From an uncultured archaeon (GTDB lineage Archaea; Thermoplasmatota; Poseidoniia; MGIII; CG-Epi1), in the NCBI GenBank assembly GCA_964626865.1, contig CAZVIT010000002.1, forward strand, positions 1-40,580: DNA of 40,580 nt, given 5' to 3'. The translations under genes and the position numbers were made by a program. The notes under the pieces were generated by a model. It saw only the letters and a program-made list of their open reading frames with translations, searched no databases and was not told the DNA's origin. How positions within the stretch are numbered: position 1 is the stretch's first letter; each line of letters opens with the position of its first letter. Positions 5,202 through 40,040 of the stretch are shown here, piece by piece.

Positions 5202-5203
5202 AA

Positions 5204-6025
5204 TTATTTAAGAATTTGAGATTTAGCTGCAGAAAATTCTGTGTCACTTAACATACCTTTATCCTTTAGCTCTCCAAGCTTTCGTAACTTCTGCAAAAGT
5301 ATCTCTCTCTTATCTTGTACTCCAGTAGTTTCTTTAAGATTACTACCCCAATCTTGTGCTCTATCTGATCTTTTCTGAAGTCGAGACCCGCACTTACCAC
5401 ATATCCTAAAATTGGCAGGAGCTCTAGCTTCACAATTTTTACATATTATATGGAAATCTTCAGATATTACTTCCTTTCTAGTGTATAAATTTGCTTTATC
5501 CTCTTCTCCAGGTGGAATTTCATTTTGAAAAATCATTTCATTCTCTTTATCATTTGGAAACCAATCTCGCCTAACTATTGTGAATGTATCTCCCTCAATC
5601 GTATGATAAAATATATCCATTCTTGATATAACTGATTCACTAGATGCAGTCTTAACTTCAAAATTGAGAGTTGTATCTGAATCTACTCCTAACTCATCAA
5701 CCATTGTTTTTCCTCTTGAGTCTAAATTGTCAAATGAAATGGTTATTGAACGTGCTATACCATTACCACTATTCTGTAAATATACTTCCATTTCACACCA
5801 AGAATCTTTCAAGGAGGAAGTCACCTGTGAAATTGATATTTCAAGGAATGGAAACTGAAATCCCTCTAGGTTAGGAATTACTTCGGCTTCAGAATTTTCA
5901 GTTAAAGGTTCTGTTGTTAACTCTTCTAATTTAACAGATGACTTAGGTGTTGGTGATCTCTTACGTTTAATTTTTCGAACTTTACGTTTGGTTCCAAAAT
6001 CGGTAAAAGAGACTTTATCCGCCAT
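5204..6025 (-). CDS. Hypothetical protein with a Lys-rich N-terminus, a beta-rich central domain, a zinc ribbon and a C-terminal SHOCT domain
   Basis: 273 aa. CKNCEARAPANFRICGKCGSRL is a CxxC-x10-CxxC zinc ribbon. The C-terminal LRKLGELKDKGMLSDTEFSAAKSQIL matches the SHOCT short C-terminal oligomerisation motif. No signal peptide or TM helix. Confidence 0.6.
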   Translation of the reverse strand: MADKVSFTDFGTKRKVRKIKRKRSPTPKSSVKLEELTTEPLTENSEAEVIPNLEGFQFPFLEISISQVTSSLKDSWCEMEVYLQNSGNGIARSITISFDNLDSRGKTMVDELGVDSDTTLNFEVKTASSESVISRMDIFYHTIEGDTFTIVRRDWFPNDKENEMIFQNEIPPGEEDKANLYTRKEVISEDFHIICKNCEARAPANFRICGKCGSRLQKRSDRAQDWGSNLKETTGVQDKREILLQKLRKLGELKDKGMLSDTEFSAAKSQILK

Positions 6026-6046
6026 AATTCCATAAAGAATAGGGGC

Positions 6047-6054
6047 TTTTATAC
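6047..6054 (-). promoter_or_regulatory. Candidate TATA box for the Zn-ribbon/SHOCT gene
   Basis: The minus strand reads GTATAAAA 22-29 nt upstream of the ATG at 6025, immediately after the dnaK stop codon. This suggests the gene has its own leaderless promoter. Confidence 0.35.
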
Positions 6055-6058
6055 TTGT

Positions 6059-7942
6059 CTACTTTTCTTCTTCGACCTTTTCGTCATCTACTTCTTCGTA
6101 ATCGACATCAACGACATTGTCATCATCATCATCTGAAGCTGGTTTTTCCTCTGTTGATTCATTCTTGGCCTGCTCTTCAGCTGCTTGTTGATAAGCCATT
6201 TCAGCTACAGCTTGTGAAGCTTGTTGAAATTCTTCAAATGCTTTTTGCATAGGCTCAAGATCGTCCTCTTTCATAGCTTCCTTCAATTTCTCTTTAGATT
6301 CCTCAACTGATGTTTTTGTCTTCTCATCAACTTTTTCCCCTAGATCCTTGATTGCCTTATCTGTAGCATAAATGAAAGATTCGGCTTGATTTCTAGTTTC
6401 TATGATCTCTCTAGCTTGTTTATCTTCATCTGCGTATTGTTCAGCTTCCTTGACTTTTTGTTCAATCTCATCATCACTTAAGTTTGATTTAGAAGTAATT
6501 TCAATCTTTTGCTCATTATCAGTGCCTAAATCCTTTGCTGTAACATTAATGACACCATTACGATCTATATCGAAACTAACTTCTATCTGTGGTACTCCTC
6601 TTGCAGCAGGCGGTATTCCTACAAGTTGAAAACGGCCCAATGTATCATTGTCTGCAGCCATTGTTCTTTCACCTTGCAATACATGAATCTCTACGCCTGG
6701 TTGATTATCTGCTGCCGTTGAGAAAATCTTTGATTTATTTGTTGGGATTGTAGTATTTCTATCAATCAAAGGAGTCATAACAGACCCTTCAGTTTCAATT
6801 CCCAATGTCAAAGGAGTTACGTCAAGAAGAACAACATCCTTGATATCTCCTGCTAGAACTCCTGCCTGAATAGCTGCGCCCATTGCAACACATTGCATTG
6901 GATCTACACCTCTTTCGGCCTTTCTTCCAACAAACTTTTCAAATGCTTTCTGAACTGTAGGCATACGTGTAGGTCCACCCACAAGAATAACCTTATCAAC
7001 ATCTCCAGGCTTCATTTTTGCATCTTTAAATGCTTGCTTTATCGGCTTTTCACACCTAGATATAACTGGTCCAACAATATCTTCTAACTTAGCTCTTGAC
7101 AAATCATGCTCAAGATGTTTAGGCCCACTAGAATCTGACCAAATATAAGGTAAATTTATGGTAGATTTTAAAGTATTACTTAATTCAATTTTTGCTTTCT
7201 CTCCAGCATCATGTAAACGTTGACGTGCAGCCTGATCATCTCTTAGGTCAATACCATTTTCTTCCTTGAATAAATCAGCTAGATAGTCAACTAAAGCATC
7301 ATCCATGTCTGTACCCCCTAGCTTATTATCACCTGAGGTAGAGATTACATCAAAAACACCATTATCCATCTCCATAATTGTAACATCAAATGTTCCTCCC
7401 CCTAAATCTAAAACTGCTACAGTGTATTCTCCTTCTTTATCTAAACCATATGCTAAAGCTGCCGCAGTTGGTTCGTTAATTATTCTTTCAACTTTCAGCC
7501 CTGCAATTTTTCCTGCATCAATTGTTGCTTGTCTCTGATTATCATTAAAATAAGCTGGAACCGTAATAACTGCCTTTTCAATGTCTACACCTAAATGTTC
7601 TTCTGCATCTGCTTTAATCTTTTGAAGAACCATTGCAGATATTTCTTCAGGAGAGTATTTTTTCTTCTTAATAGTTACTCTATGTTTTGTCCCCATCTTC
7701 CTCTTGATATGCATAATTGTATTTTTAGGATTCAATACTGCTTGCCTTTTTGCAGGGTCTCCTACAATTCTCTCACCATCTTTGGTAAATGCAACTACTG
7801 ATGGAAACATTTTACCTCCAAATGTAGAACCTTCTGCTGAAGGTATTATTACAGGTCTTCCACCCTCAAGATATGCTGCCTCTGAGTTTGTTGTACCTAG
7901 ATCTATGCCAATTATAACTTCTTTTGCCATTTTTTTACTCAC
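6059..7942 (-). CDS. dnaK: Molecular chaperone DnaK (Hsp70)
   Basis: 627 aa. Classic Hsp70 motifs are present: [30 protein letters not shown]. It ends in an acidic C-terminal tail. Confidence 0.97.
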
Positions 7943-8489
7943 CTTTCTCTTCTTCTTTTTGTTCGTCTTTTTCTTCTTTCTTGGAAACTACTACCTTTGC
8001 TGGTCTTAGTAATTCTCCTTCAAGTAAATATCCTGCTTGAATCACATCTACTATTGTATGTGGTTCAATATCTTCCTTAATTATTGTGGTCATTGCTTCA
8101 TGGAAACGAAAATCGAATGGTTCGCCAGCTGGATTAAATCGTTCTACTTTCATTGATTCCAAAAATGATTTTGTAAATTTATCAATGCCATTAATACCTT
8201 CTACCGCACTAGCTACATCTGGATAATCTGATTTAGAGGCCTTATCAATTATTTCTACAACTTCAAGAAAACTTAATACTGCCAAACCTTTGCTTTTGAG
8301 ATTTTGTTGTTCTCTATCTCTTTCAATCCTTTTCTTGTAGTTATCCAAATCAGCCATTGACCTAGCAAATTTATCATTCATATCTTCTAGTTCTTGCCTT
8401 AACAAGGATAACTCATCTACTGAATCATCTTCAGTGGAAGATGACTTATCTTCTTCATTGGCAACTTTAGATTTTTTATCTGAACTCAT
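7935..8489 (-). CDS. grpE: Nucleotide exchange factor GrpE
   Basis: 184 aa. An acidic N-terminus is followed by a coiled coil ([23 protein letters not shown]) and a C-terminal beta domain ([16 protein letters not shown]...[16 protein letters not shown]). It overlaps the dnaK start by 8 nt. Confidence 0.9.
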
Positions 8490-24345: not shown

Positions 24346-24534
24346 GTGTCAAAAGAAGCGGAAGAAATAAAAAAATTACAACAGACTATTAATGAACTTC
24401 AAACTGAACTTAAATTCTTACAAGAGACTGTTGGTGTATTAGTAGGAGCTATGATGGAAGATGGCGAATCTGAGGATTACTTTGGAAATGCTGAAGCCGG
24501 AAATCCTTCATTCAGACTTAACATGGGAATGTAG
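24346..24534 (+). CDS. Small hypothetical protein (62 aa): N-terminal coiled coil, acidic C-terminal half
   Basis: ORF with a GTG start. It has a heptad-like KEAEEIKKLQQTINELQTELKFLQETV segment. No recognisable family, so coding status is uncertain. Confidence 0.35.
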   Translation: MSKEAEEIKKLQQTINELQTELKFLQETVGVLVGAMMEDGESEDYFGNAEAGNPSFRLNMGM

Positions 24535-24581: not shown

Positions 24582-24659
24582 GCTCGCGTGGTGTAGCCTG
24601 GCCTATCATCTCAGCCTGTCGAGCTGAGGACTCGGGTTCAAATCCCGGCGCGGGCGCCA
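24582..24659 (+). tRNA. tRNA-Asp (anticodon GTC), genomically encoded CCA
   Basis: Folded by hand. Acceptor stem GCTCGCG/CGCGGGC (one U-G pair). D-arm GTGT/TCAT with G10-U25 and a GG-containing loop. Anticodon stem TCAGC/GCTGA with loop CTGTCGA (anticodon GTC at 24618-24620). 4-nt variable region. T-arm TCGGG-TTCAAAT-CCCGG. Discriminator G at 24656, then CCA. The stems are GC-rich against an AT-rich background. Confidence 0.9.
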
Positions 24660-24713
24660 TTATTTTAGACGAAACAATTTAATGATGCCTATTTCTGCGG
24701 TTATAGGCTAATT

Positions 24714-27700
24714 ATGCGAGGACAAAAATATCAGGCATTGATTGTTGTTATTTTATTACTTACAGCTCTACCTTATTCTCCCTTCTTATCACGAGCTTCA
24801 AGTATAGAAAAAGACCCATTAGCTGAAAAAGATTTAGATGGTGATGGGATACCTGACCCACCCGTAAGAGATAGTGATGGAGATGGGCTATCTGATGATT
24901 ATGAAATCGCTTTAGGATTTGATCCCAATGATTTTGATATGGATGATGATGGAATCTCCGATTTGATGGAGCAGCAAATGTGGGATGACTTGAAGAATTT
25001 AGACGAAATACCTGACAGCATGGAGGATTTGTATGATTGTGAAGGTGATTTAGATGGAGATGGAATTACCAATTGTATGGATCCTGATGCCGATGGCGAT
25101 GGATTTTCTGATGCTGATGAGATGGCAGATTCAGATTTTGATGGAATCCCAGATATGTATGAAAATATGATAGATCACTTGGATCCAAATAATCCTGATA
25201 GTGATGGTGATGGAATCCCTGATATGGATGATCAAGATCCACCGTTACCTGAATGGGCTGAGGATATGGCAAATAAAAATGACTGGACACCTCAACCTGA
25301 TTCTAATGGAATGGGTGGATTGGAGGGCTTTTATCCTCTTGCCGTACTTGCTGCAGTTAAATTTACTGTAGTGTGTGATAATTGTGGGGAACCTACTTCA
25401 AATCCTCAATATTGGAGAACTGCTGCAAAAATAATTTATGATAATGGATATGATTCAAATACTGATAGTTACACTCGTAGCCAATGGTGCCCTGCTCCAG
25501 GATGCGAACAATATGATATAGAAACTGGAGTTGTTGAAAATCCTGGTTATTGGTCAACGGGTTCTAATCCATATGGCTATGATTACTTAGTTACACACCC
25601 AGATGTTACTAGCCAACAATATCAATACACTATGACTTGGATTATGCCGGTACAGGGATATCTGTCTACATCATTGCATACTAATAATGTTTTCATAAGT
25701 AATAGCGTTACTATGGACAGTTCTTTTAATTTGAAAGTTGACGGATATGCTCAGGCATATACTTTCACAATGACGGAATATAATATTCCTGAGAATGTAA
25801 AACAAGCTGCTAATGCTCCAGAAAATTTTCCTTCAGAATTTACTGAATTGCCACAATTCCCAGTGAGACCTGGACCCGATAATGATGTTTACGATTTAGC
25901 TGCTTCAATAACAGAAGGTAAAGATACTGATTATCAAAAAGCTGAAGCTATAATGTATTATCTAAGAAACAATTATTATTACAACATTAACGGAACCTTA
26001 ACTCCTGATGGTGAGGATTTTGTTGATTATTTCTTATTTGGAAATGGAGATACTGACGGAAAATGTACTAATTTTGCTTCTGCGTTTACAGTTTTATCAA
26101 GAATAAGTGGAATTCCTACAAGATATGTAGAAGGAAATGGTCCTGGAGAAGTAATTACTCCTGAAGGTTGGCAAAATAGTGGATATGGAGAGAGTACTGG
26201 TTACCAAATAGAAGAGGATACAAGAATCATTACAATGCTCAATGGGCATGCCTATGCCGAAGTGCTGTTTGATGAAATTGGTTGGATAACTTTTGAACCT
26301 ACTTCATCCACAACTTGTCCTACTTGTGATCCCAATGGCGCTACAACCACTGGAGATGATGATACTGTAGTTGGCAATGGAACTCAACCTGGAACTAACT
26401 ATGAAATAACTGATAGTGATGGCGATGGGCTGAGTGATGAATACGAAATAGGAATAGGTACAGACCCTAATAATCCAGACAGTGATTATGATACCTTACC
26501 TGATGGTGTGGAATCTAATTCCGGTGTTTTTGTAGATGTAGATACTGACACTGGAACAAGCCCCTTACTTGCCGACACTGATGGTGATGGACTGGAAGAT
26601 GATGATGAAATATTATGTAGATTATACTCACTTAGTGGTAAATTTTGTTCACATCCGCTAGACTCAGATACTGATAATGATGGATTGAGTGATGGAGATG
26701 AATACTACACTTATTCAACTAATCCTATCGATAATGACAGTGATGATGACAATCTTACTGATGGGTTAGAAATAGGAATTATTGGGAATATTTTTGAAGA
26801 GGATTATAATTCAAACTCCTGCTCTACAAGAAATGGTGAAAGTGTATATGTAAATTGCAAAGAAACCTGGCAGCCTGATGAAGATGGATCGTCTACAACT
26901 AACCCACTAAACCCAGATAGTGATAGTGATGGAATCGATGATGGTGATGAAGATAAAAATAATAATGGAAAGTTAGATGATGGAGAAACTGCCGCAGATT
27001 TATTTGATACTGACGGAGGAGGAAGAAGCGATTTTGAAGAATTGTTTACTGATTCAACTGATCCCAGAGATTCTGAAGATGATATTGGAGATACTGATGG
27101 TGATGGCCTTCTTGACCATCGAGAAGAAGAATTAGGAACTAATCCTACTTTAATGGATACTGATGGTGATGGGATAAATGATGGGGATGAAGTTACGCTA
27201 TACTTTACAAATCCTCTAGAAGAGGATAGTGATAGTGATGGGTTAACTGATTTTGAAGAAATTTATGCTTTAGGAAGTTGTGAATGGATTTCTCCAAAAA
27301 CATCTATTTCTTGCGATTACAATGAAGATGGTATAAGAGACGAGAATGACGGAACTGATCCTAATGATCCAGACACAGATGGAGGAGGAACTTATGATGG
27401 ATTTGAAGTTGATTTAGATGGAACTAATCCGCTTAACAACAATACCGATGATGTTCCTGCTGATGAAAGAGATACTGATGGTGACGGCTTAACCGATATG
27501 GAAGAAATTAACATTTACAATACAAATAAATTTAACAATGATACTGATGGAGATGGTCTCTTAGATGGTGACGAAGTAAATACTTATGACACAAAACCAG
27601 ATAAAAAAGATACTGATGGAGATGGATTAAGTGATTATGATGAAATATTTACTCACGAAACAAAACCTGATGAAAGTGATTCTGATGAGGATGGCATTGA

Positions 27701-30700
27701 AGATGGGGAAGAAATTAATGATCATGAAACGAACCCTAATTTGCCAGATACAGATGGTGATGGAATAGAGGATTATGACGAGATTTTTACCTATTTTACA
27801 AACGCTTCAAACTCAGATACAGATGGTGATGAACTAAGCGATGCAACCGAGATTAACATCTATTTTACAAATGCTACAAAATCAGATAGCGATGATGATG
27901 GACTAAGTGACGGGGAAGAAATTACTGGTACAGGTGGATATTTTACTAATGCTACAAGAAATGATACTGATGGAGACGGACTAGATGACGGACTAGAGAT
28001 TAATACCTATTTTACAAATCCTACAAGTAATGACACTGATTCTGATGGATTACTTGACAAATGGGAACTAACTGGAAACTTCCCTAGTTGTAGCTGGATA
28101 AATTCAGATACGGGAGTTACTTGTGATTTTAATGGGGATGGGGATCAAAATTGGCTTGATGGAACTAATCCAAATAATTGGGATACAGATGGGGGAGCTG
28201 TAGGCGATGGTGTGGAAATCTATGTGGACGAGAGCAATCCTAGGAATGGCTCAGATGATGATACTAATGATTTAGATCAAGACGGAGATGGGCTAACTGA
28301 TGGTCAAGAATTTGTACTTGGAACAGATAGATTGGATCCTGATACCGATGGAGATGGATTGAACGATGGGCATGAAGTAAATAATCTTACAAGTAATCCT
28401 CTAAATGCTGATACTGATGGAGATGGACTAGATGACGGGGATGAAATTAATATTTATTTTTCCAATCTCACATTAGAGGATACTGATGGAGATGGACTAA
28501 ATGATGGGGATGAAATCAACTACTATTATACCAACGCTACAAACAATGATACTGATGGAGATGGCCTAAATGATGGAGAGGAAGTTAATAATTATGATAC
28601 TAATCCTAATTTAGTAGATACTGATGGAGATGGTTTAAGCGATGGGGAGGAAGTTTTAGGTTCTAATGATGGATGGATATATTGTGCACAAGAAGATGAG
28701 GTTTGTGCCTTCAACGGGACTAAATATGTCCGATACGGAATAGATGGAACCTACAATGAAGGTTGGATTAACAATGGTGTTGACTGCTCAAATGATGTTT
28801 TTGGAGATCCGGTTCCTGGAGTTGAAAAAGAATGTTACTACATTTCTCCCGGATATACTTCTAATCCAAATTTAAAAGATACTGATGGAGACGGTTTAGA
28901 AGATGGAGAAGAAATTGATGATTATGGTTCAAATCCAAATCTTGAGGATAGTGATGGTGATGGACTAAATGATGGAGAAGAAGTTAACGATTATAACTCA
29001 AATCCAACATCACTTGATTCAGATGGAGATGGCCTTGGAGATGGCAGTGAAATAAACAATTATGACACGGAACCTGGAAATAATGACACTGATGGCGACG
29101 GACTAGATGACGGACTGGAGATTTTTACCTTTTTTACAGATCCAAACGATACGGATAGTGATGATGATACCTTAAATGATGGTGATGAAGCTCTTGTATA
29201 TGGTTCAGATCCTTTAGATAAAGACACAGATGGTGATGGTCTTGAAGATTACAACGAAACTGCGGTGCATCTTACAAATCCTACCAAGTCAGACACTGAT
29301 GATGATGAATTAAATGACTTTGTAGAAATCTTCACTACACTTACAAATGCTTCGAACTCAGATACTGATGGTGATGGTCTCTTAGATGGAGTTGAAACTA
29401 ACACAGGAACATATGTAGATAATGAGGACACCGGAACCGACCCAAATGATCCTGATAGTGATAATGATGGATTAAGTGATTCTTATGAAATAAGTGAAAA
29501 TCCTGCTTATACTGATCCATTGAATTGGGATACTGATGGAGGAGGAGTTAGTGATGGTGTTGAAATAATAACTGACGAAACTAATCCAAATAATTTGGCT
29601 GATGATAATGTAGCTGCAAGTGATACTGACGGAGATGGGCTAACGAATGGTGAAGAGGAAGTTTATGGAACTAACGTTACAAATCCAGATACAGATGGCG
29701 ATGGTCTCTTAGATGGATTTGAAGTAGATATGGTTGAATCTGACCCACTTCTTGAAGATACTGATGGAGACGGACTAGATGATGGTGTTGAATGGACTCT
29801 AACAGATACAGACCCCACTAATAGTGATAGTGATGGAGATCTATTGAGTGATGGAGATGAAAATATCACTTATGGAACAGATCCAAATAATTGGGACAGT
29901 GATGGAGATGGATTGAGGGATTATGCAGAAATATTTACTTATTTAACTAATCCACTAAACGTAGACACTGATGATGATGAATTAAATGATTGGTATGAAG
30001 TTAACTACCATCTTTCGGATCCTAATGACAATGATACTGATGATGATGGATTAAGTGATTATGAAGAAGCAGTTACCTATGAAACTAGCCTAAAAAAATC
30101 AGACACAGATGATGATGGAATAGAGGATTACGACGAAGTTTTTACCTATTTTACAAATCCCACAGTATCTGATACTGATGAAGATGGTTTAGGTGATGGT
30201 ACTGAAATCTTTTATTGGAATGATTACGTTACAGATCCTCTAGATGAAGATACTGATGGAGATGGATTAAATGATGGGCTCGAAATTGACCTTGGAATTA
30301 ACCCTTTAGATGTGGATAGCGATTCTGATGGACTTGATGATTATTGGGAATATATTAGAAGCTCTGAAGGTTATAACTATGACGCAGGAGATAATGACAC
30401 TGATGACGATGGAACCTTAGATGGTGATGAGGATTTAGACACTGATGGATTAACAAACCTTGAAGAAATAAATACTTATTTTACAGATCCTTTAGAGGTA
30501 GATTCAGATTCGGATAATCTTTGGGACGGGGACGAAATTAACCCTTGGACAATAAAAAAAGATGGAGTAAATAATCTATATAATTACCCTTCAGACCCGA
30601 CTCTTCCAGACTCTGATGGAGATGGATTAAATGACTATGATGAAGTCACTCCTTCAAATGATACTCTTGAATCTAGAACAAATCCCAAGGATAGCGATAC

Positions 30701-33700
30701 TGATAATGATGGTTTAACTGATTATTATGAAATAAGTTGGTATTGGAACATAACTGGTGACGATAACACGCCACGTCTTTACTACATGAATATACAAGGA
30801 TGGAATACATCTGATCCAAGAGAAGAAAATACTGATGGAGATATATGGGATGATGGTGATATAGATGAAGAAAATCCTGTTTACGGATATTTCGAAGATG
30901 AAGATGTGGGGTGGGGAAGTCCTCCAGCAAGAGCTGGAACTCCTACACTTCCTCCTGAGGAAGTCTATAAAGATCAAGAGTTCATATGGTCTTTTGGACC
31001 TTTACTTAATCAGTCCTCGGGGGAACCATATATAGGAGTAGTAATTGATGCATATCTTAACGAGACTGAGGATTCCGATAGCATTTCACACAAAATAGGA
31101 AGTGGAATAACCGATTCTGAGGGATTCATGGAAGTTGTATGTAATGGAAGTTATTTAAAATCACAAATAAAAGCTGGCAATTGGTTCTTACAATTATATC
31201 GCGAAGAACAGTTCATAGAACATGCAAATGTATCAAAAAGGATACTGGAAGAATGGAGAGATGCACCCCCTAGAGGCATTAACATAACTGGAAATACAAC
31301 AATAGACTCTACAATACCTACAACTGCTGCAAGTTTGAAAACAACGATAATAACTGGAACTTTATTTGAAGACGACGGAATTCCTATTCAGAATGATTTT
31401 GTATCTCTTGAATTTGATAATATAACTTATTACGATTTAACAAATGAAAATGGTATTTTCACAATTGAAATTAATACTCCAGATGTAGAAGATGCTTATT
31501 ATGATCTAAATCTAAAATATAATGGAACTGAACATTTAACTGAAAAAATTGAAAATACTTCTATTAGAATAATTAATGCATCCGTTGAATTAAGATTTGA
31601 TGAGTTAAATGATATAACCTTTAATTTAGAAGAAGAATATAACATAAAAGGCACCATATTTGGTGATGAAGGTGCACAACCTACTGGGACTATTGAACTA
31701 AGATATGGAGATAATTATATTGGAGAAGCGATTGTTGTTGGAAATCAGGCCTGGGATATTAGTTTCGCGGTACCACATAATGCTTCATGGGGAAATACCA
31801 TACTAACTGCAACTTATTCGGGTAATGAAATTTATCCTTCTGACATAGTTGTAGATGATATTATAATAAAAGGAGAAAGTAACTTAACATTAGAAAAAAT
31901 TACTTCATTAAGAACTAATTTAATAAAGATAAAAGGAAATTTAACAGACCATAATGGCCAAATTATTGAGGATAAATTAATTACTCTATTCTTTGACAAT
32001 AACCCACTTGGTTCAGTTAGAACTGGAAGTGATGGAAGCTATGTTTTCTCACAGAATTTATCAACTGAATCTGCAGGATTACATCAAATTAAAGCTGTTG
32101 TTTATGGTAGCACTACACTTTCATCTGCTGAAACAATAAATAATCTAACTTTATTAGCTACACCAAATTTAATATTTGACGATTCTGCAAAATGTAAAAA
32201 CACGGAAGAGTTTACAGAAAAAATTTGTAAAGCTGCTAGAGGAACCGAATATAACTTATCAGGAATACTTGTAGATGAATTAGGCAATATAATGCCTAAC
32301 ACAACTATTGACTTCTTCAGTGAAAATATAGGAATGGCACCTCTTTCTAAAACCGACTCCAATGGAGAATTTATTTACAATGAAGTTGTAAATGAAGGGC
32401 AAACTGATATTTTTACGATTGATATTACAATAGAAGAATCATACATATTAGAAACTGTATTTGAACTAGATATTATTCCACAAACAAGCGTAATTCTCAC
32501 CTTAAAAGTAGACAATGAAAACAAAAAGGCATACAGAGGTGAAAATGTCAATTTGTCAGGTTCTCTTGCTGATAATTCAGGTACGCCCCTCAATGATCAG
32601 GTTGTAGGAATTCTTATCAATTCTAATATTGTTTATACTTCTACAGACGAAATGGGCCTTTACACTCTTAATTATCCTTTAGTTTCTAATTATGAGTTAG
32701 GTGAAAGCAATGTTAGCATAATTTATAACGAAACAGATTGGTTTTTAGGTTCTACCGAACACAATGTCTTTATTGTTTCTGGAACTACTACATTTGAGGC
32801 TGTAAATGTTGAAGGTGATTGGTTCAATAATGAATTAAGGCGTGGAGGTGATATCAATGTTTATGGAATATTAGTAGACGACCTAGGAAATCGTGTGAAT
32901 GACAATATTTCAGTTAGCATTGGGAGCTCAGAACTAGCAACGGTATTTACGAATGAATCCACATTTATTTCAACAGGAACTATTCCCGAGGATTATAGAA
33001 ACAATCATACTTTGGAAATTGCCTTTATGGGAAGCTCCTACCTAGATGGAACTCAATACAAGAGTAAGCATTCTATATTAGTAGAAAGTGAAATACGATT
33101 TGATTTTGAACCCCAAAATGTTTTCCCAGGAGATATTGTCAACGTTTCCGTTTGGTTAGAAGAAGATGATGGCAGCCCTATTCCTGATTCAGAACTGGCA
33201 GTTATAGTAAATCTATTTTATGAGAAAAATATTGAAATGGACACATATCTTGAATATAATTTAACTACCGATCAGGATGGTTTTGCTAAATTTAATTTTG
33301 AATTCCCCGAAGATGCAAGTAGCGCAAGTATAGAAGCTGCATTCTCTGGAGGATATATTGATGCATATGATGATACTCCACAAGAAACTGAATTAACATC
33401 TACAAACGTTGCTATTAGTATTACAAAATCTCCTGAAGCAAAAGAGCCTTTTGATATTAATAAGTATTTACCCCTATTCATTGGAATCCCTGCTGCACTT
33501 TTGGTAACTGCTTACTACTTATACTGGACACAAAAACACAAATATGAAGTTCGAAATTTGATTAAGCAAATGCAGAAAGAATTGAATAAAGACGAGGATT
33601 ATAGACAAATTATAATTAAATCTTATCATCAATTATTAAATATTCTTGATAGATATGGATTCATTAAAACTAAGACTCAGACCGTCAGAGAATTTACAGA

Positions 33701-33959
33701 TGTTATGCGAACTGCGTTACCTATACCTAATCAAAGTGTTAAATTATTAACTTCATTGTTTGAAATTGCAAGATACAGTGGAATAAAACCCAAAGTTGTT
33801 GATGAATTTGGAATGGAAATGATTGATGGATCATACAATATCTGGTGTGTAGAAGCAATCAACAATCTCCATGAAGTTGAAATAGAGTTGAACAAAGGAC
33901 TCAAAGAAGGGAAAGTTTCTAGATTCACAAATATATTTGGAATGAGGTCTGCTAAATGA
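24714..33959 (+). CDS. Giant (3,081 aa) surface protein: signal peptide, transglutaminase-like core, a very large array of thrombospondin type-3 (TSP3_bac-like) Ca2+-binding repeats, Ig-like (CarboxypepD_reg-like) repeats, single TM helix, cytoplasmic DUF4129-like tail
   Basis: One uninterrupted ORF. The signal-like N-terminus is [19 protein letters not shown]. An N-terminal cluster of 7 DxDxDG loops lies at about 24831-25240. The transglutaminase-like core lies at about 25896-26303: [26 protein letters not shown] (Cys 26064-26066), NGHAYAEV (His 26247-26249) and GWITFEPT. The main repeat array is at 26410-30880. About 8 repeats of the type G.L.D..G.PI....V.......T.T...G.F lie at about 30981-33440. 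The TM helix [21 protein letters not shown] is at 33465-33527. The tail carries a DUF4129-like signature (TVREFTDVM...[12 protein letters not shown]). Confidence 0.9.
26410..30880 (+). repeat. In-frame tandem array of roughly 57 thrombospondin-type-3-like Ca2+-binding units (basic unit 23 aa / 69 nt, consensus DTDGDGLxDGxEhxxYxTNPxxx)
   Basis: Hand count of D-x-D-x-D-G-type loops in the translation. Perfectly phased 23-aa units occur, for example at 28400-28620 ([23 protein letters not shown] / [23 protein letters not shown] / [23 protein letters not shown]). Near-identical DNA segments recur, for example 27964-28020 versus 29091-29150. Confidence 0.85.
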
Positions 33960-35383
33960 GAAGAACATTCCGTGAAAGATATGGCTCAAAACTTTTTTCT
34001 CTTTTTATCATTCTTATGATGGTTACTGTCGTTTATCCTACCTTAATTACAAATGCTAAAAATCCTTCTCAACTCTCTGCATATGATGACGATTGGAATG
34101 ATATTTCAGATTTTGCTGCAGATATTGATGAAGATCAAAACGGTAAACATGTCATGAAAACTATTGTTTCAAGACCTGCAATCATTAACAAAATATCTGA
34201 AATTGAAAAAAATACAACAACTCAAACTATTAATGTTAATTCAACTGTACTCGTCATTATTGGAGTAGAAAGAAGCTATTCTGAATTTGATTCGAATGCA
34301 ATTTATAATTTTGTTAAATCTGGAGGAAAAGTTATCATTGCTGACGATTCAGGTTATGGAAATTCTGCATTTTATGGTGAAATGGGAACTTTAGAGATTG
34401 GTGTTAAACTAAGAACTAATATCGTTCAAGAAGGTTGCCAGCCAACCCAAGACTCGGGATTACTGGCTCAAGGTTTAGATTTTGCAGGATATGATGGAAG
34501 TAGTGGTAGTAGTCCAAAATGTAAACCTGCTCAATTATATGATTCAAACCATTGGGATGAACCTATACACCCCAAAAATAATTCAATTGCTATAATCGAT
34601 GCTGATGTGCCAAGAATGGGTTTTAGCGGTCAATTAATGATGAGCTCGCCTGGCGCCCTTACAATTCAAAGTGGAGGAGCTGCTGAAGGTTTAGTTTGGT
34701 CAAGCCAACAAGCATTTATCGATTATAACCAGGACCAAATAGGAGGAAAAGGAGAAGGAACATACAGAGATGACTCCACTAATGGTGTAGAAGTTGTTGC
34801 TGAAGCTAATATTGGAGATGGAAAGGTTATTTTTATCTCAGATACAAGCATATTTACAAACGAATATTATGATGATTTAGATAACCGAGACTTTATTTTG
34901 GCAATGGTAAACTACATTACAGAAGGTGAAAAACATACTCTAATTTTTGATGAAAGTCGCCATATACAATCTGACATACTCTCACTTGTTTATGTCCAAT
35001 TATTTGGAATATTAGGATATATTAGTAATAGCGAAACTTTAGGAATCATTTTTTTAGGTTCAATTATTTTAATTTTACAACTAGTCATGATGAGAGTAGA
35101 AAACCCAAAACCTTGGAGGCACCTTTTCAATATATATGAGGGGAGATTATCTCGATTTAGGGTTCCTCATGCACACTATACTCATCCAGATACGATTAAA
35201 GAAATATTTATCGAAAAAGTAAGAATTGAAAATGGATATACAAGAGAAGAGTTTGGGATGCTATCTCAAACAAAAATTGAGGAACTGCTGCATGATCCTC
35301 TATTAATTAAATTTATGATCAATGACGATCGAAGTATGACCTTAAACGAGGTTGAAGAAGCTATAAAAGGATGGAAAAAATAA
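33956..35383 (+). CDS. DUF4350-like (GldG/ABC-type uncharacterised transport system-like) bitopic membrane protein
   Basis: 475 aa. An N-terminal TM anchor ([19 protein letters not shown]) is followed by an extracytoplasmic domain with DUF4350-type motifs ([38 protein letters not shown] and [33 protein letters not shown]). A second TM helix ([18 protein letters not shown]) precedes a ~100-aa cytoplasmic tail. The start forms an ATGA overlap with the giant gene. Confidence 0.6.
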
Positions 35384-36450
35384 TGGGCCTATTTGGAAAA
35401 AAGAAAACAAAAGAAGAGCAAGAACCAACTCCTGAAGTTGAGACTGAAGAACAAAATGATGGTGTACAAACCTACATGATGGATCCTTCATTACAAGAAA
35501 CGCACGACATGATGCAAGCGGTTTTAGCTGAGGCTGAACAAGTTGTTATGGGTAAAAGACCTATACTTGACTTAACTGCCGTGGGAATACTTGCTGGTGG
35601 AAATATTCTCTTCGAAGATAATCCAGGATTGGCGAAAACTCTTTTAGCTAATACCTTCGCACAAGCATTAGGCATTAATTTTAAACGTGTCCAATTCACA
35701 CCTGACCTTTTACCTGCAGATATTACTGGAATTTATATATGGAACCAAAAAGACCAAAAATTTGAATTTAGAAAAGGGCCATTATTCTGTAACTTATTGC
35801 TTGCAGATGAAATAAATCGAGCCCCCCCAAAAACACAAGCTGCATTATTGGAAGCCATGCAAGAACATCAAGTTACTATTGAGGGTGAAACCCATATTTT
35901 ACCTGAACCTTTTGTTACACTAGCTACACAGAATCCTATTGAATCTGAAGGTACCTATCCATTACCTGATGCTCAATTAGATCGTTTTATGATGAAACTA
36001 TCTATGGGATATCCTGGAAGGCCTATTGAAAGAGCAATACTTGTAAAACGAAAACAACGTGGAAAAGATGACCATGAACTCCAGGCAATAACTACTCCTG
36101 AAAAGCTTAGAGAAATGCAATTAAGTCTTGAGAAAGTAAGAATAGATGATTCAATTATTGAATATATTGTTGAAATTATTTACCGAACGAGAGAGGATCC
36201 ACGTGTAAAAGTAGGGTCTTCACCGAGAGGTGCACAATCTCTATTCAAGCTATCTAGGGCTCTTGCTGTTTTGAGTGGAAGAGATTATGTAATACCTGAT
36301 GACATCAAAAGACTAAGTATCTATACACTAAGACACAGGATAATTCTAAAACCTGAACCAAGAATTAAAGGTGTTAAAACTGAAGAAATCGTTTCTGAGA
36401 TTCTTGAACAAGTAGAAGTACCAACTACACAAGGACAATTAGAAGACTAG
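35371..36450 (+). CDS. MoxR-family AAA+ ATPase
   Basis: 359 aa. Walker A FEDNPGLAKT, Walker B LLADEINRAPPKTQAALLEAMQE, then VTIEGETH, LATQNP and the C-terminal lid SPRGAQSL. An in-frame alternative start at 35383 (MGLFGKKK...) would give a TAATG overlap with the upstream stop, as at two other junctions in this window. Confidence 0.92.
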   Translation: MEKIMGLFGKKKTKEEQEPTPEVETEEQNDGVQTYMMDPSLQETHDMMQAVLAEAEQVVMGKRPILDLTAVGILAGGNILFEDNPGLAKTLLANTFAQALGINFKRVQFTPDLLPADITGIYIWNQKDQKFEFRKGPLFCNLLLADEINRAPPKTQAALLEAMQEHQVTIEGETHILPEPFVTLATQNPIESEGTYPLPDAQLDRFMMKLSMGYPGRPIERAILVKRKQRGKDDHELQAITTPEKLREMQLSLEKVRIDDSIIEYIVEIIYRTREDPRVKVGSSPRGAQSLFKLSRALAVLSGRDYVIPDDIKRLSIYTLRHRIILKPEPRIKGVKTEEIVSEILEQVEVPTTQGQLED

Positions 36451-37695
36451 ATGTGGAGTAAGAAAGCTGCAGCTGTCGCAGGAGGTGCTATCTTCTTGAC
36501 ACTCGCAGGATTGATTAGATTAAATTATCTTTTCATAAGTGCTGGACTAGTAATGCTAACCTTTGTTGTAATATCAAGTTTCTTAGATGTTTGGATGCCT
36601 AATGTTAAAATTAGGAGAGAAACAACATCTGATAATATTTTTGAAAATGGAACTATGTCTGTCAAATTTATAATTAAAAATACAGGATTAGGAATTGGAT
36701 TTGTAGAAATATATGATAGTCTGCCACCTCAGGCTAGAATAATTAAAGGATCAAATTACACTTTACTATACATGAAGCCTTGGCAAGAAGTTTCTTTTGA
36801 GTATTCACTGAAATTACCACTAAGAGGACATTATCATTTAGGCCCAGTTAAGATGCGTGTAAAGGACGCTTTTGATTTATTTTACAATGAAAGATCAGAA
36901 AAGTCTATACATAGCTTCTCTGTATTCCCTCAAATAGAAGTTCTGGAAGACCAAATTATTACTTCTCGATCTCCGAAATTACTTTCTGGGGCAATGCCTT
37001 TAAATGTAATTGGTACAGGAACTGAATTTTATTCATTAAGAGAATTTGTTCCTGGCGATTCACTTCGTTCAGTCAATTGGAAGGCTTTAGCTAAAAAAGG
37101 TAAGATGATGGTCAATGAAACGGTTAGAGAAGATGTAATGGATGTTATCTTACTATTAGATGCAAGGGAAATCTCTGCAGTAGGAGGAGGTAATGACACT
37201 CCTCTTGAAATGTCCTGTAGAGCTGCTGCAACGTATGCCAAACAACTACTTGATGAAAGAAATAATGTTGCTCTTATGGTTTATGGTGAAAGTATTGAAA
37301 GAGTTGATTTGGACCGAGGTGAACATCATCTTTTCAAAATTTTGACTGCATTATCAAGTGCTAAACCTCAGGGGAATCTAAAATTAGAAATTGTAATGAA
37401 GGATTTGCTACCACACCTTCCAAGTGGATCGCCAATTATTCTTTTTAGTTCACTCGATGATGATCATACTATTGCTGAAGCATTTACAAGCACAATTAGT
37501 AGAGGATTTACAATTACCACTATTTCACCATCTAGCTTAGACTTTGAGGAAAGAATGAAAAGAATTCCTATGGAACCTTTATTGATTGCTAAAATTGAAA
37601 GAGACAACATGATTTCTGAACTTAGAAGCTTTGGACTCCAAGTAGGCGACTGGAAATATGGTGATAATGTAAATACTGCTTTGCAGGAGATGTAA
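36451..37695 (+). CDS. DUF58-domain protein (vWA-like, usual partner of MoxR), N-terminally membrane-anchored
   Basis: 414 aa with two N-terminal TM helices. The DUF58 signature is GTEFYSLREFVPGDSLRSVNWKALAKKGKMMVNE, followed by a vWA-like beta-strand (DVILLLDAR). The start codon directly abuts the MoxR stop (TAG|ATG). Confidence 0.85.
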   Translation: MWSKKAAAVAGGAIFLTLAGLIRLNYLFISAGLVMLTFVVISSFLDVWMPNVKIRRETTSDNIFENGTMSVKFIIKNTGLGIGFVEIYDSLPPQARIIKGSNYTLLYMKPWQEVSFEYSLKLPLRGHYHLGPVKMRVKDAFDLFYNERSEKSIHSFSVFPQIEVLEDQIITSRSPKLLSGAMPLNVIGTGTEFYSLREFVPGDSLRSVNWKALAKKGKMMVNETVREDVMDVILLLDAREISAVGGGNDTPLEMSCRAAATYAKQLLDERNNVALMVYGESIERVDLDRGEHHLFKILTALSSAKPQGNLKLEIVMKDLLPHLPSGSPIILFSSLDDDHTIAEAFTSTISRGFTITTISPSSLDFEERMKRIPMEPLLIAKIERDNMISELRSFGLQVGDWKYGDNVNTALQEM

Positions 37696-38805
37696 ATGGA
37701 AGAAAGCCCTGTAGAAATAAAAGCATCAAGAATACCAAAAATCGATAAAATTATAAATTACAAAGATTTATTTGGAGAATACCCCATAATATTTGCAATT
37801 AAAATAATCTCTAGTTTATCTCTAATATATGTAATTAGTGAATTTTACATTTATCATAATCCGATGGATTCTCTTGTCACTAAATATCTTGGAGATTCTT
37901 TAAAAGGTTTTGACCCGCAACCGGATGTCTTTGTTCCGTGGGGCTTTGCAGCGGGTTTTCTTTTTTATATTTTTACTATCTTTAAAGGGAAATACAAATT
38001 CTTCTTATTCATATTAATTGCTGGAAGTCTAGGCCATTATATTGCTGATCCAGCTATAGATGTGCAACAAGGTGAATATCTTATTCCCTCCAAAGTTGAA
38101 ATTGAGAATAGCGAAGAAGATGCTACAGAATGGAAATGGAAACCTGTTAAATTAATATATGATGATGTCGAAGAAACAAATAATAGAATTGATGACATAT
38201 CAGTTAGACTTACAAATATTATTTTTGGATCAATGCCCTTCTTTGGGGCTTATGGAATATGGAAGAGAAAAGGCTGGGCAATTGCTGCATCTATTGGTTT
38301 AGCAATTATTATTGGATTTCTGTATACGCCTAATTTATGCCTTGAGAATTTTGAAGAAGATTTTTGTGGGTATGACACAAAGCAAGAGGAAAAAACTTGG
38401 AGTGAGTATTTGTCAAGCGGGATTTTTATTGGCCTAGGATTTGTAATTTATATTGAATTATCATATGCTGCGATAAAATATGAAAACTATGCCGAACAAT
38501 TCAAACCTGCTGGCCTAGATGTTGCTCTCTTAACTGATGCTCAAAGAAAGAGTGTTTCTAAAACTTTGAGAACACTATTTGTGAGTTATTTAGTTAACCT
38601 CGCTGTAATTCTATTTGCAACATTTATTATTGCAGAAGTGGTAATAAATATTAACGATTATCTATCCACAAGTGATGGACAAATACAGGATTCTATCGAA
38701 TTACAAGGCCCATATGGCATTGTCTTTACTTCACTCCTATTTTTCTTATTATTAGGTATCATTAGGATGTTCATAGGTCCAGATAACAAAATTGAAGAAA
38801 CTTAG
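37696..38805 (+). CDS. Polytopic membrane protein, no recognisable family (fifth gene of the MoxR operon)
   Basis: 369 aa with about 7-8 hydrophobic helices and two acidic loops (EIENSEEDATEWKW, ENFEEDFCGYDTKQEE). The start directly abuts the DUF58 stop (TAA|ATG). Confidence 0.55.
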   Translation: MEESPVEIKASRIPKIDKIINYKDLFGEYPIIFAIKIISSLSLIYVISEFYIYHNPMDSLVTKYLGDSLKGFDPQPDVFVPWGFAAGFLFYIFTIFKGKYKFFLFILIAGSLGHYIADPAIDVQQGEYLIPSKVEIENSEEDATEWKWKPVKLIYDDVEETNNRIDDISVRLTNIIFGSMPFFGAYGIWKRKGWAIAASIGLAIIIGFLYTPNLCLENFEEDFCGYDTKQEEKTWSEYLSSGIFIGLGFVIYIELSYAAIKYENYAEQFKPAGLDVALLTDAQRKSVSKTLRTLFVSYLVNLAVILFATFIIAEVVININDYLSTSDGQIQDSIELQGPYGIVFTSLLFFLLLGIIRMFIGPDNKIEET

Positions 38806-40040
38806 GATATTTCAATAACTTCATTTTCTTGAGGCAAAATAAGTTCATAATCTTTTAAATCTTCTTTGAAAGCTTCTCGATTATCGCCATGGTAAAGAAT
38901 AACTTTTTCTGGATTGCATGCCTCAATAAAATCAACAATTTGACTATGGCCTGCATGCCCACTAAGATCAAAGGACTTTAATTGACAATTAATATCCACA
39001 AGAGGAGATGAATCTCCTCTTTCCAGCCTAAGTTTACTTGTTTCCTTCAATAAATGTCCATTTGTACCTGGAACTTGGAAACCTGTCAAAAACACTGCTG
39101 AGGAAGGATTCTTACGTATTTCTGATAAGTAATGTAAAACAGGTCCTCCGTTTAGCATTCCCGAGGTAGTAACTATGACATCGCCCTTCATTGCTGCCTT
39201 TCTTTGGCGTGAGTATTTAACAAAATTAGTATTTCTAAATGCCTTGTTCATTCCTCCTACATCTCTTATTGCACCAGGATATTTTTGTAATATTCGAGCT
39301 ATATCTCTACCCATTCCGTCAAGCCAGACTTCACAACCTAACTTTTCAACGAGCATCAATAACTCTTGGGATCTTCCTAAACCGAATGAAGGAAGTACTA
39401 CTTGCCCTCCCATATTTACTACATCTTCTACAGAATCGACTAACTCTTTTTCTGTTTCAACTCTATCAGGATGCTCTCTTCCCCCATATGTTGATTCTAT
39501 TGCTAATGTTTTACATTGACGAGGCTTAGCTGCACGAGTAAGTTGAGTATTTACGGTATGGATATCTCCTGTGAATAAAAAATCTTCTTGTGGGAAATTA
39601 TACATTACGGCTCCAGGAATGTGGCCTGCATTGTAAACATTAAACTCGAAACCTCCTCTATATTCTACATTTCCTGGAAGAATTCCTCTATGATTTTGTA
39701 CCAAATCAGAAATTGCTGTTTTGTGAAAAGGCAATGGATAATTTTCTATTTCGGCAACTCTTAATGTGTCTTGAGCCATTCGTTCTGCAAGATCTCCAGT
39801 TACTGGTGTAGAAACTATAGGAGTTCCTCTGCTAGCAATTTTTGGAACTAGACCACAATGATCTAAATGTGCATGAGTAAGTAAAAGAGCATCTACCTCA
39901 GGGGCTGGTAAAGGGTATTTTGGAGGGTCATCTGGTTGTAAACCATAATCAAGTAACAAACGTCCATTATTGCCCTCTAAGATTGCACCTATTCTACCTA
40001 CTTCCGAGGCTCCGCCTAAGTATCTTAATGTTGCTGGCAT
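38802..40040 (-). CDS. MBL-fold beta-CASP ribonuclease, aCPSF2-like (no N-terminal KH domains)
   Basis: 412 aa. The metallo-beta-lactamase motif 2 is LLTHAHLDHCG. The later beta-CASP motifs are compatible (IESTYGG, SGHAGHSQI, ILYHGD). Confidence 0.75.
   Translation of the reverse strand: MPATLRYLGGASEVGRIGAILEGNNGRLLLDYGLQPDDPPKYPLPAPEVDALLLTHAHLDHCGLVPKIASRGTPIVSTPVTGDLAERMAQDTLRVAEIENYPLPFHKTAISDLVQNHRGILPGNVEYRGGFEFNVYNAGHIPGAVMYNFPQEDFLFTGDIHTVNTQLTRAAKPRQCKTLAIESTYGGREHPDRVETEKELVDSVEDVVNMGGQVVLPSFGLGRSQELLMLVEKLGCEVWLDGMGRDIARILQKYPGAIRDVGGMNKAFRNTNFVKYSRQRKAAMKGDVIVTTSGMLNGGPVLHYLSEIRKNPSSAVFLTGFQVPGTNGHLLKETSKLRLERGDSSPLVDINCQLKSFDLSGHAGHSQIVDFIEACNPEKVILYHGDNREAFKEDLKDYELILPQENEVIEIS

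Follow-up and report, generated by a model that had tools for sequence, protein, structure and literature searches.

A five-gene locus of Marine Group III archaea that links a giant transglutaminase-type surface protein to MoxR, DUF58, DUF4350 and an unnamed membrane-protein family

Positions 24714–38805 of the archaeal DNA analyzed here (the window; 40,580 nucleotides of contig CAZVIT010000002.1) are filled by five consecutive forward-strand open reading frames (ORFs), established from an ORF list and by direct reading of the sequence and called g1 to g5. They encode a giant surface protein with a transglutaminase (TGase) core, a DUF4350 protein, a MoxR ATPase, a DUF58 protein and a polytopic membrane protein. 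The identities and the linkage of these genes are well supported. The interpretation that we favor, and to which we would give about an even chance, is that the locus is one operon for a membrane-spanning complex of the TgpA type, an archaeal DUF4350 (arCOG01314) form elaborated in Marine Group III (MGIII), in which MoxR remodels a surface complex. An initial annotation had read the same genes as a coupled envelope module, and that reading is partly supported. The main value of the locus is that it constrains models of MoxR–DUF58–TGase systems and that, in archaea abundant in the sea, it defines a conserved membrane subunit which is new.

The five genes overlap or abut. The stop codon of g1 (24714–33959, 3081 residues) overlaps the start codon of g2 (33956–35383, 475 residues) in an ATGA at 33956–33959, and g2 meets g3 (35383–36450, 355 residues) in a TAATG at 35381–35385. 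At the boundary of g3 with g4 (36451–37695, 414 residues) TAG is followed directly by ATG (36448–36453), and at that of g4 with g5 (37696–38805, 369 residues) TAA is followed directly by ATG (37693–37698). The ORFs and all four junctions are exactly those given in the initial annotation. An alternative start of g3 at 35371 would yield 359 residues; the start at 35383 is favored because most public MoxR gene calls are 355 residues long.

Relatives were gathered by scanning species-representative genomes with a g2 alignment, which returned 80 loci; ORFs were called in 85 loci and then searched with all five proteins. The closest g2 loci, at 88–91% identity, lie in MGIII (CG-Epi1) metagenome-assembled genomes (MAGs). 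The lineage of the window is thus MGIII, of the class Poseidoniia, and not Marine Group II (MGII), the group to which the initial annotation had looked. The gene order is the same in all 24 MGIII-type loci (g2 identity 33–91%), 20 of them with all five genes and four cut by contig edges. Their junctions again overlap or abut, with 4-nucleotide overlaps at three junctions of locus L001. Because order and junctions are both retained, the five-gene linkage is not a matter of chance. An account in which g1 is an adhesin gene of its own, lying upstream of a MoxR/DUF58 cluster by accident and without joint function, is very improbable. MGII does keep DUF4350, DUF58 and a g5-like gene with neither g1 nor MoxR nearby, as such an account would have it. 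However, the ATGA overlap of g1 and g2 is conserved at 33–50% identity, the presence of the genes co-varies across lineages, and the g1 tail carries DUF4129, which TGase partners in clusters of this kind typically have. TGase, MoxR and DUF58 genes are, moreover, linked generally in both bacteria and archaea (PMC3495828, PMC3507681).

The overlapping and abutting junctions kept in relatives, together with one conserved TATA-like element upstream of g1, suggest that g1–g5 form an operon read as a single transcript. The element, AAACAATTTAAT at 24672–24683 (+), is a candidate archaeal BRE/TATA (B recognition element and TATA box) sequence about 31 nucleotides upstream of the g1 ATG. In seven aligned MGIII loci its TTTAA core and the AAA beside it do not vary, while adjacent intergenic bases do. 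Likeness to the archaeal TATA consensus is the basis for naming this region a promoter, and it would presumably serve all five genes. Its position implies a near-leaderless operon mRNA that would start downstream of a tRNA-Asp(GTC) gene (24582–24659, +), which lies 54 nucleotides upstream of g1 and is the sole RNA element found by an Rfam scan of the window.

Profile searches find the families that the initial annotation had assigned: Transglut_core, DUF4350, AAA_3 and DUF58 in the window itself, and DUF4129, borderline here, clearly in relatives. The predicted membrane topologies also agree with those proposed earlier (a single transmembrane (TM) helix and tail in g1, two segments and a tail in g2, a hairpin in g4 and about eight helices in g5); TM segments were taken from hydropathy and an AlphaFold2 (AF2) model.

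The g1 protein has a signal-like N-terminus (residues 1–29; 24714–24800), a thrombospondin type-3 (TSP3) block (residues 40–175), a TGase core (residues 394–529; 25893–26300) with C451, H512 and E528, a long TSP3 array (residues ~567–2010; 26412–30743), an Ig-like/MG4/CarboxypepD_reg region (residues ~2080–2905; 30951–33428), one TM helix (residues 2918–2940; 33465–33533) and a cytoplasmic DUF4129 tail of 141 residues (2941–3081; 33534–33956). The core matches Pfam Transglut_core with 77.4 bits against a cut-off of 23 (E 1e-21). Pfam also finds 16 scored TSP3_bac repeats (7e-71) and several Ig-like, MG4 and CarboxypepD_reg matches between residues ~2300 and 2880; repeats of 69 nucleotides in the DNA correspond to the 23-residue TSP3 period. 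The isolated tail scores 24.1 bits against DUF4129, just under the cut-off of 24.8, but all five clade g1 tails match the family (best 3e-10), as does the tail of locus L027 (35.6 bits), so that the assignment holds despite the borderline score.

That the giant protein binds Ca2+, as had been suggested, is in keeping with motif and composition counts, which give 55 DxDxDGxxD-like Ca2+-binding motifs and 15.4% Asp. Probable glycosylation of the ectodomain likewise fits a modest enrichment of N-x-S/T sequons (53 against 38 ± 5 expected). The protein has no vWA domain or lipoprotein signal, and no β-propeller was found in it. Its NCBIfam match to CglD, though 5.6e-102, is below the cut-off (342 against 400 bits) and, like that to MtsD (2e-37), comes from the repeats only. 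Bacterial TSP3 adhesins (Myxococcus CglD and MtsC/MtsD) share with g1 the long Ca2+-binding TSP3 arrays, but they are without the TGase and DUF4129 modules, both of which are present in g1.

A papain-fold active site had been proposed for g1, and the family assignment bears this out, with a difference in the triad. In the alignment, all clade members keep Cys451 and His512 (NGHAYAE), whereas the third position is Glu528 (GWITFEPT) rather than Asp in nine of nine clade sequences, including relatives at 25–38% identity. A Cys-His-Glu triad may be active. The nearest, and the only, solved relative of the catalytic region by sequence is Pseudomonas aeruginosa TgpA (6g49, E 7e-4), aligned across the catalytic Cys. 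The TgpA-type layout, in which a TM helix and a cytoplasmic DUF4129 region follow a TGase ectodomain, is present in g1. A Pfam scan of g1 found no TgpA_N (DUF3488) domain and hydropathy gives only the single N-terminal signal-like segment; the relatives in L001 and L027 show weak partial TgpA_N matches.

The TGase partner had been described as expanded 20-fold. This holds against a catalytic core of ~110–150 residues, but against full-length TgpA (668 residues) the 3081 residues of g1 amount to ~4.6-fold. Its size does vary among relatives, from about 2,000 to 3,140 residues, as had been anticipated: complete orthologues have 1,998–2,051 residues in deeper branches (L001, L023 and L024) and 2,996–3,137 in the CG-Epi1-like branch. 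This variation arises through gain or loss of TSP3 and Ig modules. A literature search for MGIII-specific reports of the giant protein gave nothing relevant. The fusion of the TGase to a giant Ca2+-binding stalk, which would place the active site distal to the membrane, appears to be a new feature of this locus.

The position of the TGase core bears directly on a published model. For the strict MoxR–vWA–YebA/TGL operon, Zhang and Aravind proposed in 2012 a membrane-proximal ATP-dependent protease in which substrates would be recruited by vWA/DUF58, unfolded by MoxR and cut by the TGase-like peptidase (PMC3495828). Such a scheme suits the papain-like fold of TGase-like domains, many of which are peptidases. 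In g1, however, the core lies between the signal peptide and the only TM helix and is flanked by extracellular-type TSP3 repeats. It would thus lie on the side of the membrane opposite to MoxR, with ~2,400 residues between it and the bilayer, an arrangement that allows no hand-over of unfolded substrates; the TGase domain of TgpA is also reported to be periplasmic (PMC3507681). The protease model is already contradicted by the topology of this variant, and we give it hardly any probability here. Because direct transfer of unfolded substrates from MoxR to the TGase is excluded in this way, a trans-membrane complex that acts through the cytoplasmic tails is favored.

The g3 protein is a soluble, cytoplasmic MoxR ATPase without a TM segment. 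It matches AAA_3 (6e-64) and AAA_lid_2 (7e-23), both far over their cut-offs, and the MoxR-like PDB entry 2r44 (E 9e-80). The Walker A (PGLAKT) and Walker B (LLADEINR) motifs, read from the translation, are intact. The profile of the bpMoxR family is matched only marginally (27.5 against 27 bits), beneath the far stronger AAA_3 match.

The g2 protein has a DUF4350/GldG-like (GIFT, flavodoxin-like) ectodomain. It matches Pfam DUF4350 with 48.2 bits against a cut-off of 30.4 (2e-12), with weaker ABC_transp_aux and IFT52_GIFT matches. A hydrophobic N-terminus (residues 13–31), either a signal peptide or an anchor, precedes the ectodomain (residues ~35–355), a TM helix (356–379) and a conserved cytoplasmic tail of 96 residues (380–475). 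Together with the MoxR/vWA neighborhood, the profile match, the N-terminal segment and the single C-terminal TM helix place g2 in the DUF4350/arCOG01314 family. A motif of the tail, PWRH..FN..GR.SR.RVPHAHY, is near-invariant and is kept at 51% overall identity. Homology between the g1 and g2 tails was considered and rejected (hhalign probability 0.2%).

The g4 protein belongs to the DUF58 family (51.9 bits against a cut-off of 23.4; 8e-14), and a sequence search found no solved relative. Two adjacent hydrophobic segments at residues ~6–45 form an N-terminal membrane hairpin that is 100% identical in L021. The hairpin topology, with Lys and Arg on both flanks, obeys the positive-inside rule if the globular part lies in the cytoplasm with MoxR, the location proposed at the outset. 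The signature EFYSLREFVPGD...NWKA is conserved. At the position of the metal ion-dependent adhesion site (MIDAS), which was placed by reading the alignment rather than from a structure, g4 has LLLDAREIS and the consensus of 77 clade sequences is lDsRd, not DxSxS. The canonical MIDAS motif thus appears to be lacking, or degenerate, a distinctive feature of the locus and a departure from what the DUF58 assignment had implied.

The g5 protein, with ~8 TM helices by hydropathy and AF2, had been set down as an orphan. This description does not hold: homologues follow DUF58 across Poseidoniia and other Thermoplasmatota, which makes g5 a conserved, unnamed subunit and partner of DUF58 and DUF4350. 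It has no Pfam, NCBIfam or PADLOC family, and a Pfam scan of 22 family members found no family shared by them. The 85 homologues all come from Poseidoniia/Thermoplasmatota MAGs. An exhaustive profile search of 1.84 billion representative proteins gave only 24 g5 representatives, all close relatives or fragments; when a mixed MGII/MGIII alignment was used as the profile, the search was saturated by MGIII sequences and added only five MGII proteins. In MGII loci a membrane protein of 380–430 residues always stands after DUF58. These proteins align with g5 over 309 columns (hhalign probability 95%, E 2.5e-8) and share with it the motifs E-S-[YF]-x-x-I-[KR]-Y and S-I-E-L...Y-G; the post-DUF58 proteins of L025 and L027, from other Thermoplasmatota, align with probabilities of 94–97%.

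Invariant in the wider g5 family are G184 and W189 (GIW turn), E254 (within a TM helix, IELSY), E335 (SIEL loop) and G341; a loop predicted to lie outside contains the pair Cys215/Cys224. The AF2 models have low confidence (pLDDT, the predicted local distance difference test score, of 59 and 65 in runs with 15 and 21 sequences), and Foldseek against the PDB found no match to them better than E 1.6. For both reasons assignment of a fold was dropped. Identification of g5 as a divergent SpoIIM/DUF95 protein, an RDD protein or a GldF-like ABC-2 permease was likewise unsupported, with no Pfam match common to the 22 members. The family is probably new, and the 5-TM arCOG07126/arCOG11232 proteins are candidate relatives.

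The five proteins differ in their rates of change. Identities to L021, L001 and L023 are 90, 75 and 67% for g3, the most conserved of the five, 88, 60 and 53% for DUF58 (g4), 88, 49 and 49% for the g1 tail, and 49, 27 and 26% for the g1 Ig region, the fastest-evolving part. Conservation thus declines from cytoplasm to membrane to surface. Strong constraint on the cytoplasmic parts is as expected if the tails contact a conserved ATPase and its adaptor.

A mechanism consistent with these features can be outlined for the membrane-spanning complex. The g1 protein would be exported by Sec and kept anchored by its C-terminal TM helix. Its ectodomain of ~2,900 residues would form a Ca2+-stiffened stalk, with Ig-like domains near the membrane and then ~50 TSP3 repeats, and the tip would present the Cys451-His512-Glu528 TGase-like site, which might cross-link or trim cell-surface proteins or bound material. 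At the base, g2 with its GldG-like ectodomain and g5, an 8-TM hub with an intramembrane Glu, would sit in the membrane, and the hairpin would hold DUF58 at the cytoplasmic face. DUF58 could then recruit a MoxR hexamer to the g1 (DUF4129) and g2 tails and to g5 loops. ATP hydrolysis would assemble, reset or switch the surface complex in a chaperone-like remodeling rather than an unfolding into a protease site. How the subunits touch one another, which way information flows and what chemistry takes place are inferred.

The relatives in MGII limit how much of this scheme can be general. In 58 MGII loci only DUF4350, DUF58 and g5-like genes are clustered; within 10 kb on either side phmmer found no MoxR, and clade hidden Markov models found no TGase core or DUF4129 tail. 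A search for g3 homologues returned only MGIII sequences at 96–98% identity and no MGII MoxR, a result that is uninformative on MGII genes outside the 10-kb flanks. The co-occurrence of all five genes, proposed for survey in such genomes, therefore stands for MGIII-type loci but not for MGII, and since MGII clusters lack both the giant TGase and MoxR, the conserved core is DUF4350–DUF58–g5 rather than five genes. In L027 and L039 a TGase, a DUF4129 giant, g2, g4 and a g5-like gene occur without MoxR.

Some features of these loci stand apart. In L027, a Thermoplasmata MAG, the TGase part is a separate ORF (125–1954, 609 residues, with the partial TgpA_N match) that overlaps the giant TSP3/Ig/DUF4129 ORF (1872–8045, 2,057 residues) by 83 nucleotides in a different frame; the gene may truly be divided, or the assembly may contain a frameshift. 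In L025 a 1,601-residue protein with FG-GAP (integrin-α-like propeller) and Ig domains and hydrophobic segments (2153–6958) lies upstream of a DUF4350–DUF58–g5-like trio without TGase, which suggests that the large surface partner of the trio may vary. In 55 MGII loci (among L026 and L028–L085) a Cdc48-type double-AAA ATPase lies directly upstream of the DUF4350–DUF58–g5-like genes on the same strand; the example in L057 (7237–9486) has 749 residues with CDC48_N and two AAA domains. The ATPase may be another partner of these genes, or its position may reflect no more than local synteny.

Several points weigh against the membrane-spanning TgpA-type complex. The MGII trio without MoxR or TGase within 10 kb implies that neither the ATPase nor the TGase is an obligatory neighbor of the core, and the two may not act on it directly. 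With a degenerate MIDAS in g4, ligands may not be captured through a metal ion as is usual for vWA adaptors. In the g1 triad Glu stands in place of the canonical Asp, and the domain, if active, may be a transamidase or a peptidase. The g5 models are of low confidence, and co-transcription and all protein contacts at the locus are inferred.

The module is not undescribed in kind. The locus belongs to a known kind of neighborhood, represented by the TgpA operon (PMC3507681, PMC3495828), the arCOG01314 neighborhood (PMC5898192) and the Esr/PFNA clusters (PMC13622651, PMC8430577). In P. aeruginosa, PA2875 (MoxR), PA2874 (DUF58) and tgpA (PA2873) are co-transcribed; tgpA is essential, and the periplasmic domain of its product has Ca2+-independent TGase activity in vitro (PMC3507681). 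The MoxR, DUF58 and TGase families are common to that operon and the present locus, and in TgpA, as in g1, the TGase domain lies outside the cytoplasmic membrane, with a TM helix and then a cytoplasmic C-terminal region after it. TgpA, however, begins with a membrane domain of six helices (TgpA_N/DUF3488), and its TGase lies close to the membrane; g1 begins with a signal peptide, and ~2,400 residues of TSP3 and Ig-like sequence separate its TGase from the TM helix. The triad is Cys-His-Asp in TgpA and Cys-His-Glu in g1. In gene order, too, the loci differ: the TGase gene comes first here. The DUF4350 gene and g5 are additional to the three genes of the TgpA operon.

The arCOG01314 (DUF4350) neighborhood was predicted by Makarova, Galperin and Koonin in 2015 to encode a secretion or membrane-remodeling complex; besides DUF4350 it contains MoxR, vWA and Ig/S-layer proteins and small membrane proteins with several helices, among them the 5-TM arCOG07126/arCOG11232 (PMC5898192). 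It resembles the present locus in combining, in one predicted operon, a DUF4350/GldG-like anchored ectodomain with MoxR, vWA/DUF58, large Ig-like proteins and polytopic proteins. The word transglutaminase does not occur in the retrieved text of that study, nor does a TSP3 giant, and both are found here; the study takes the vWA protein as likely secreted, whereas the hairpin topology of g4 indicates the cytoplasm. An export or assembly machine, in which the GldG-like DUF4350 protein, g5 and DUF58/MoxR constitute a secretion or insertion apparatus with the giant protein as cargo (or other large surface proteins in other lineages), accords with the novel secretion system that was predicted in that study from similarity to GldG (PMC5898192). 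The ABC_transp_aux and GIFT matches of g2 point the same way, and MGII retains the DUF4350–DUF58–g5 trio without TGase, as a general machine would. We nevertheless consider such a machine rather unlikely. The ordinary Sec-type signal and stop-transfer TM helix of g1 imply that no special exporter is needed, and g5 is without fold or sequence likeness to known translocases or ABC-2 permeases. MoxR ATPases, moreover, are known as remodeling chaperones, as Snider and Houry reportedly set out in 2006, and not as translocation motors.

The third parallel comes from Actinomycetales. A 2026 preprint reports that the MoxR/vWA cluster Esr encodes a filamentous Ig-repeat sensor, EsrA, which the TGase EsrD holds on the cell surface, with signaling via kinases and FHA proteins (PMC13622651); the PFNA cluster of Bifidobacterium is similar (PMC8430577). 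As in the present locus, a large Sec-exported filamentous protein with Ig/FN3 repeats is clustered with TGase-like, MoxR and DUF58/vWA genes. The filament and the TGase are separate proteins in Esr/PFNA, whereas g1 is one polypeptide with its own TM anchor, and the Esr/PFNA clusters carry Ser/Thr kinase, phosphatase and FHA genes that this locus does not have.

It is possible, though rather improbable, that g1 is likewise an outside-in sensor, a filament that senses particles, viruses or epibionts and signals through its TM helix and DUF4129 tail to DUF58 and MoxR, which would set off a response of the cell, with the TGase serving only to fix or process the filament. Esr unites a Sec-exported Ig-repeat filament, a surface-retaining TGase, MoxR and vWA, and signals epibiont contact (PMC13622651). 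The Ig region of g1, which is exposed at the surface, evolves fastest, as would be expected of an interface for conflict or recognition, and the FG-GAP/Ig protein with TM segments near the L025 core hints at exchangeable large surface partners. On the other hand, the operon and the 25 window proteins scanned (five operon proteins and 20 others) include no Ser/Thr kinase, phosphatase, FHA protein, transcription factor or effector. The locus also lacks the propeller and effector domains of a MoxR–vWA–β-propeller ternary conflict system: g1 has no β-propeller, and the bpMoxR match of g3 is marginal beneath AAA_3. PADLOC gave no matches at the locus, and a defense-system reading was dropped on that ground.

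A bolder form of the membrane-spanning complex, which we regard as distinctly unlikely, would make the five proteins a new trans-envelope machine. MoxR, acting through a MIDAS-less DUF58 and the 8-TM g5 hub, would switch or retract a Ca2+-stiffened filament of ~3,000 residues whose distal Cys-His-Glu TGase covalently captures proteins; the invariant intramembrane Glu of g5 might possibly be ion-coupled. If this were true, the machine would be an energy-controlled "grappling hook" that attaches to or harvests particulate protein, or an integrin-like inside-out/outside-in device, and the MGII DUF4350–DUF58–g5 core would be driven by the upstream Cdc48-type ATPase.

MoxR–DUF58–transglutaminase operons are among the most widespread conserved bacterial and archaeal clusters still without a mechanism. 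The archaeal variant is informative in that its topology is unambiguous, with the catalytic domain extracellular and far from the membrane and MoxR and DUF58 cytoplasmic. This topology points to coupling via the conserved DUF4129 and g2 tails, both short, and via the newly recognized membrane subunit g5; the tails and the g5 family are concrete targets for interaction modeling and biochemistry. The module occurs in abundant, uncultured marine heterotrophic archaea, in a full form in MGIII and a reduced form in MGII.

The surroundings of the operon are partly conserved as well. The tRNA-Asp(GTC) gene also stands upstream of the ~3,000-residue giant gene in seven MGIII loci (L006, L011–L015 and L021) and not upstream of the ~2,000-residue versions in L001, L023 and L024. 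The g1 gene encodes 474 Asp residues (codons GAT 392, GAC 81); the tRNA gene beside it may reflect synteny and nothing more, or may help to supply a gene that needs so much Asp. Preceding the tRNA is a 62-residue ORF (24346–24534, +) with a GTG start, coiled-coil-like sequence and an acidic C-terminal half, which is kept upstream of tRNA-Asp and the giant gene in seven MGIII loci at 76–94% identity (tblastn). Between 30000 and 34000 of the window, the G+C content, ~0.38 in the TSP3 part of g1, falls to ~0.32–0.34 in the Ig-like 3′ third of that gene and in the downstream genes, a change that is attributable to amino acid composition (Asp/Gly-rich repeats) rather than to an obvious foreign insert. 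At the other end, a β-CASP/metallo-β-lactamase RNase-like gene (38802–40040, −) converges on g5 and overlaps its stop codon by 4 nucleotides, an arrangement retained in L001–L005.

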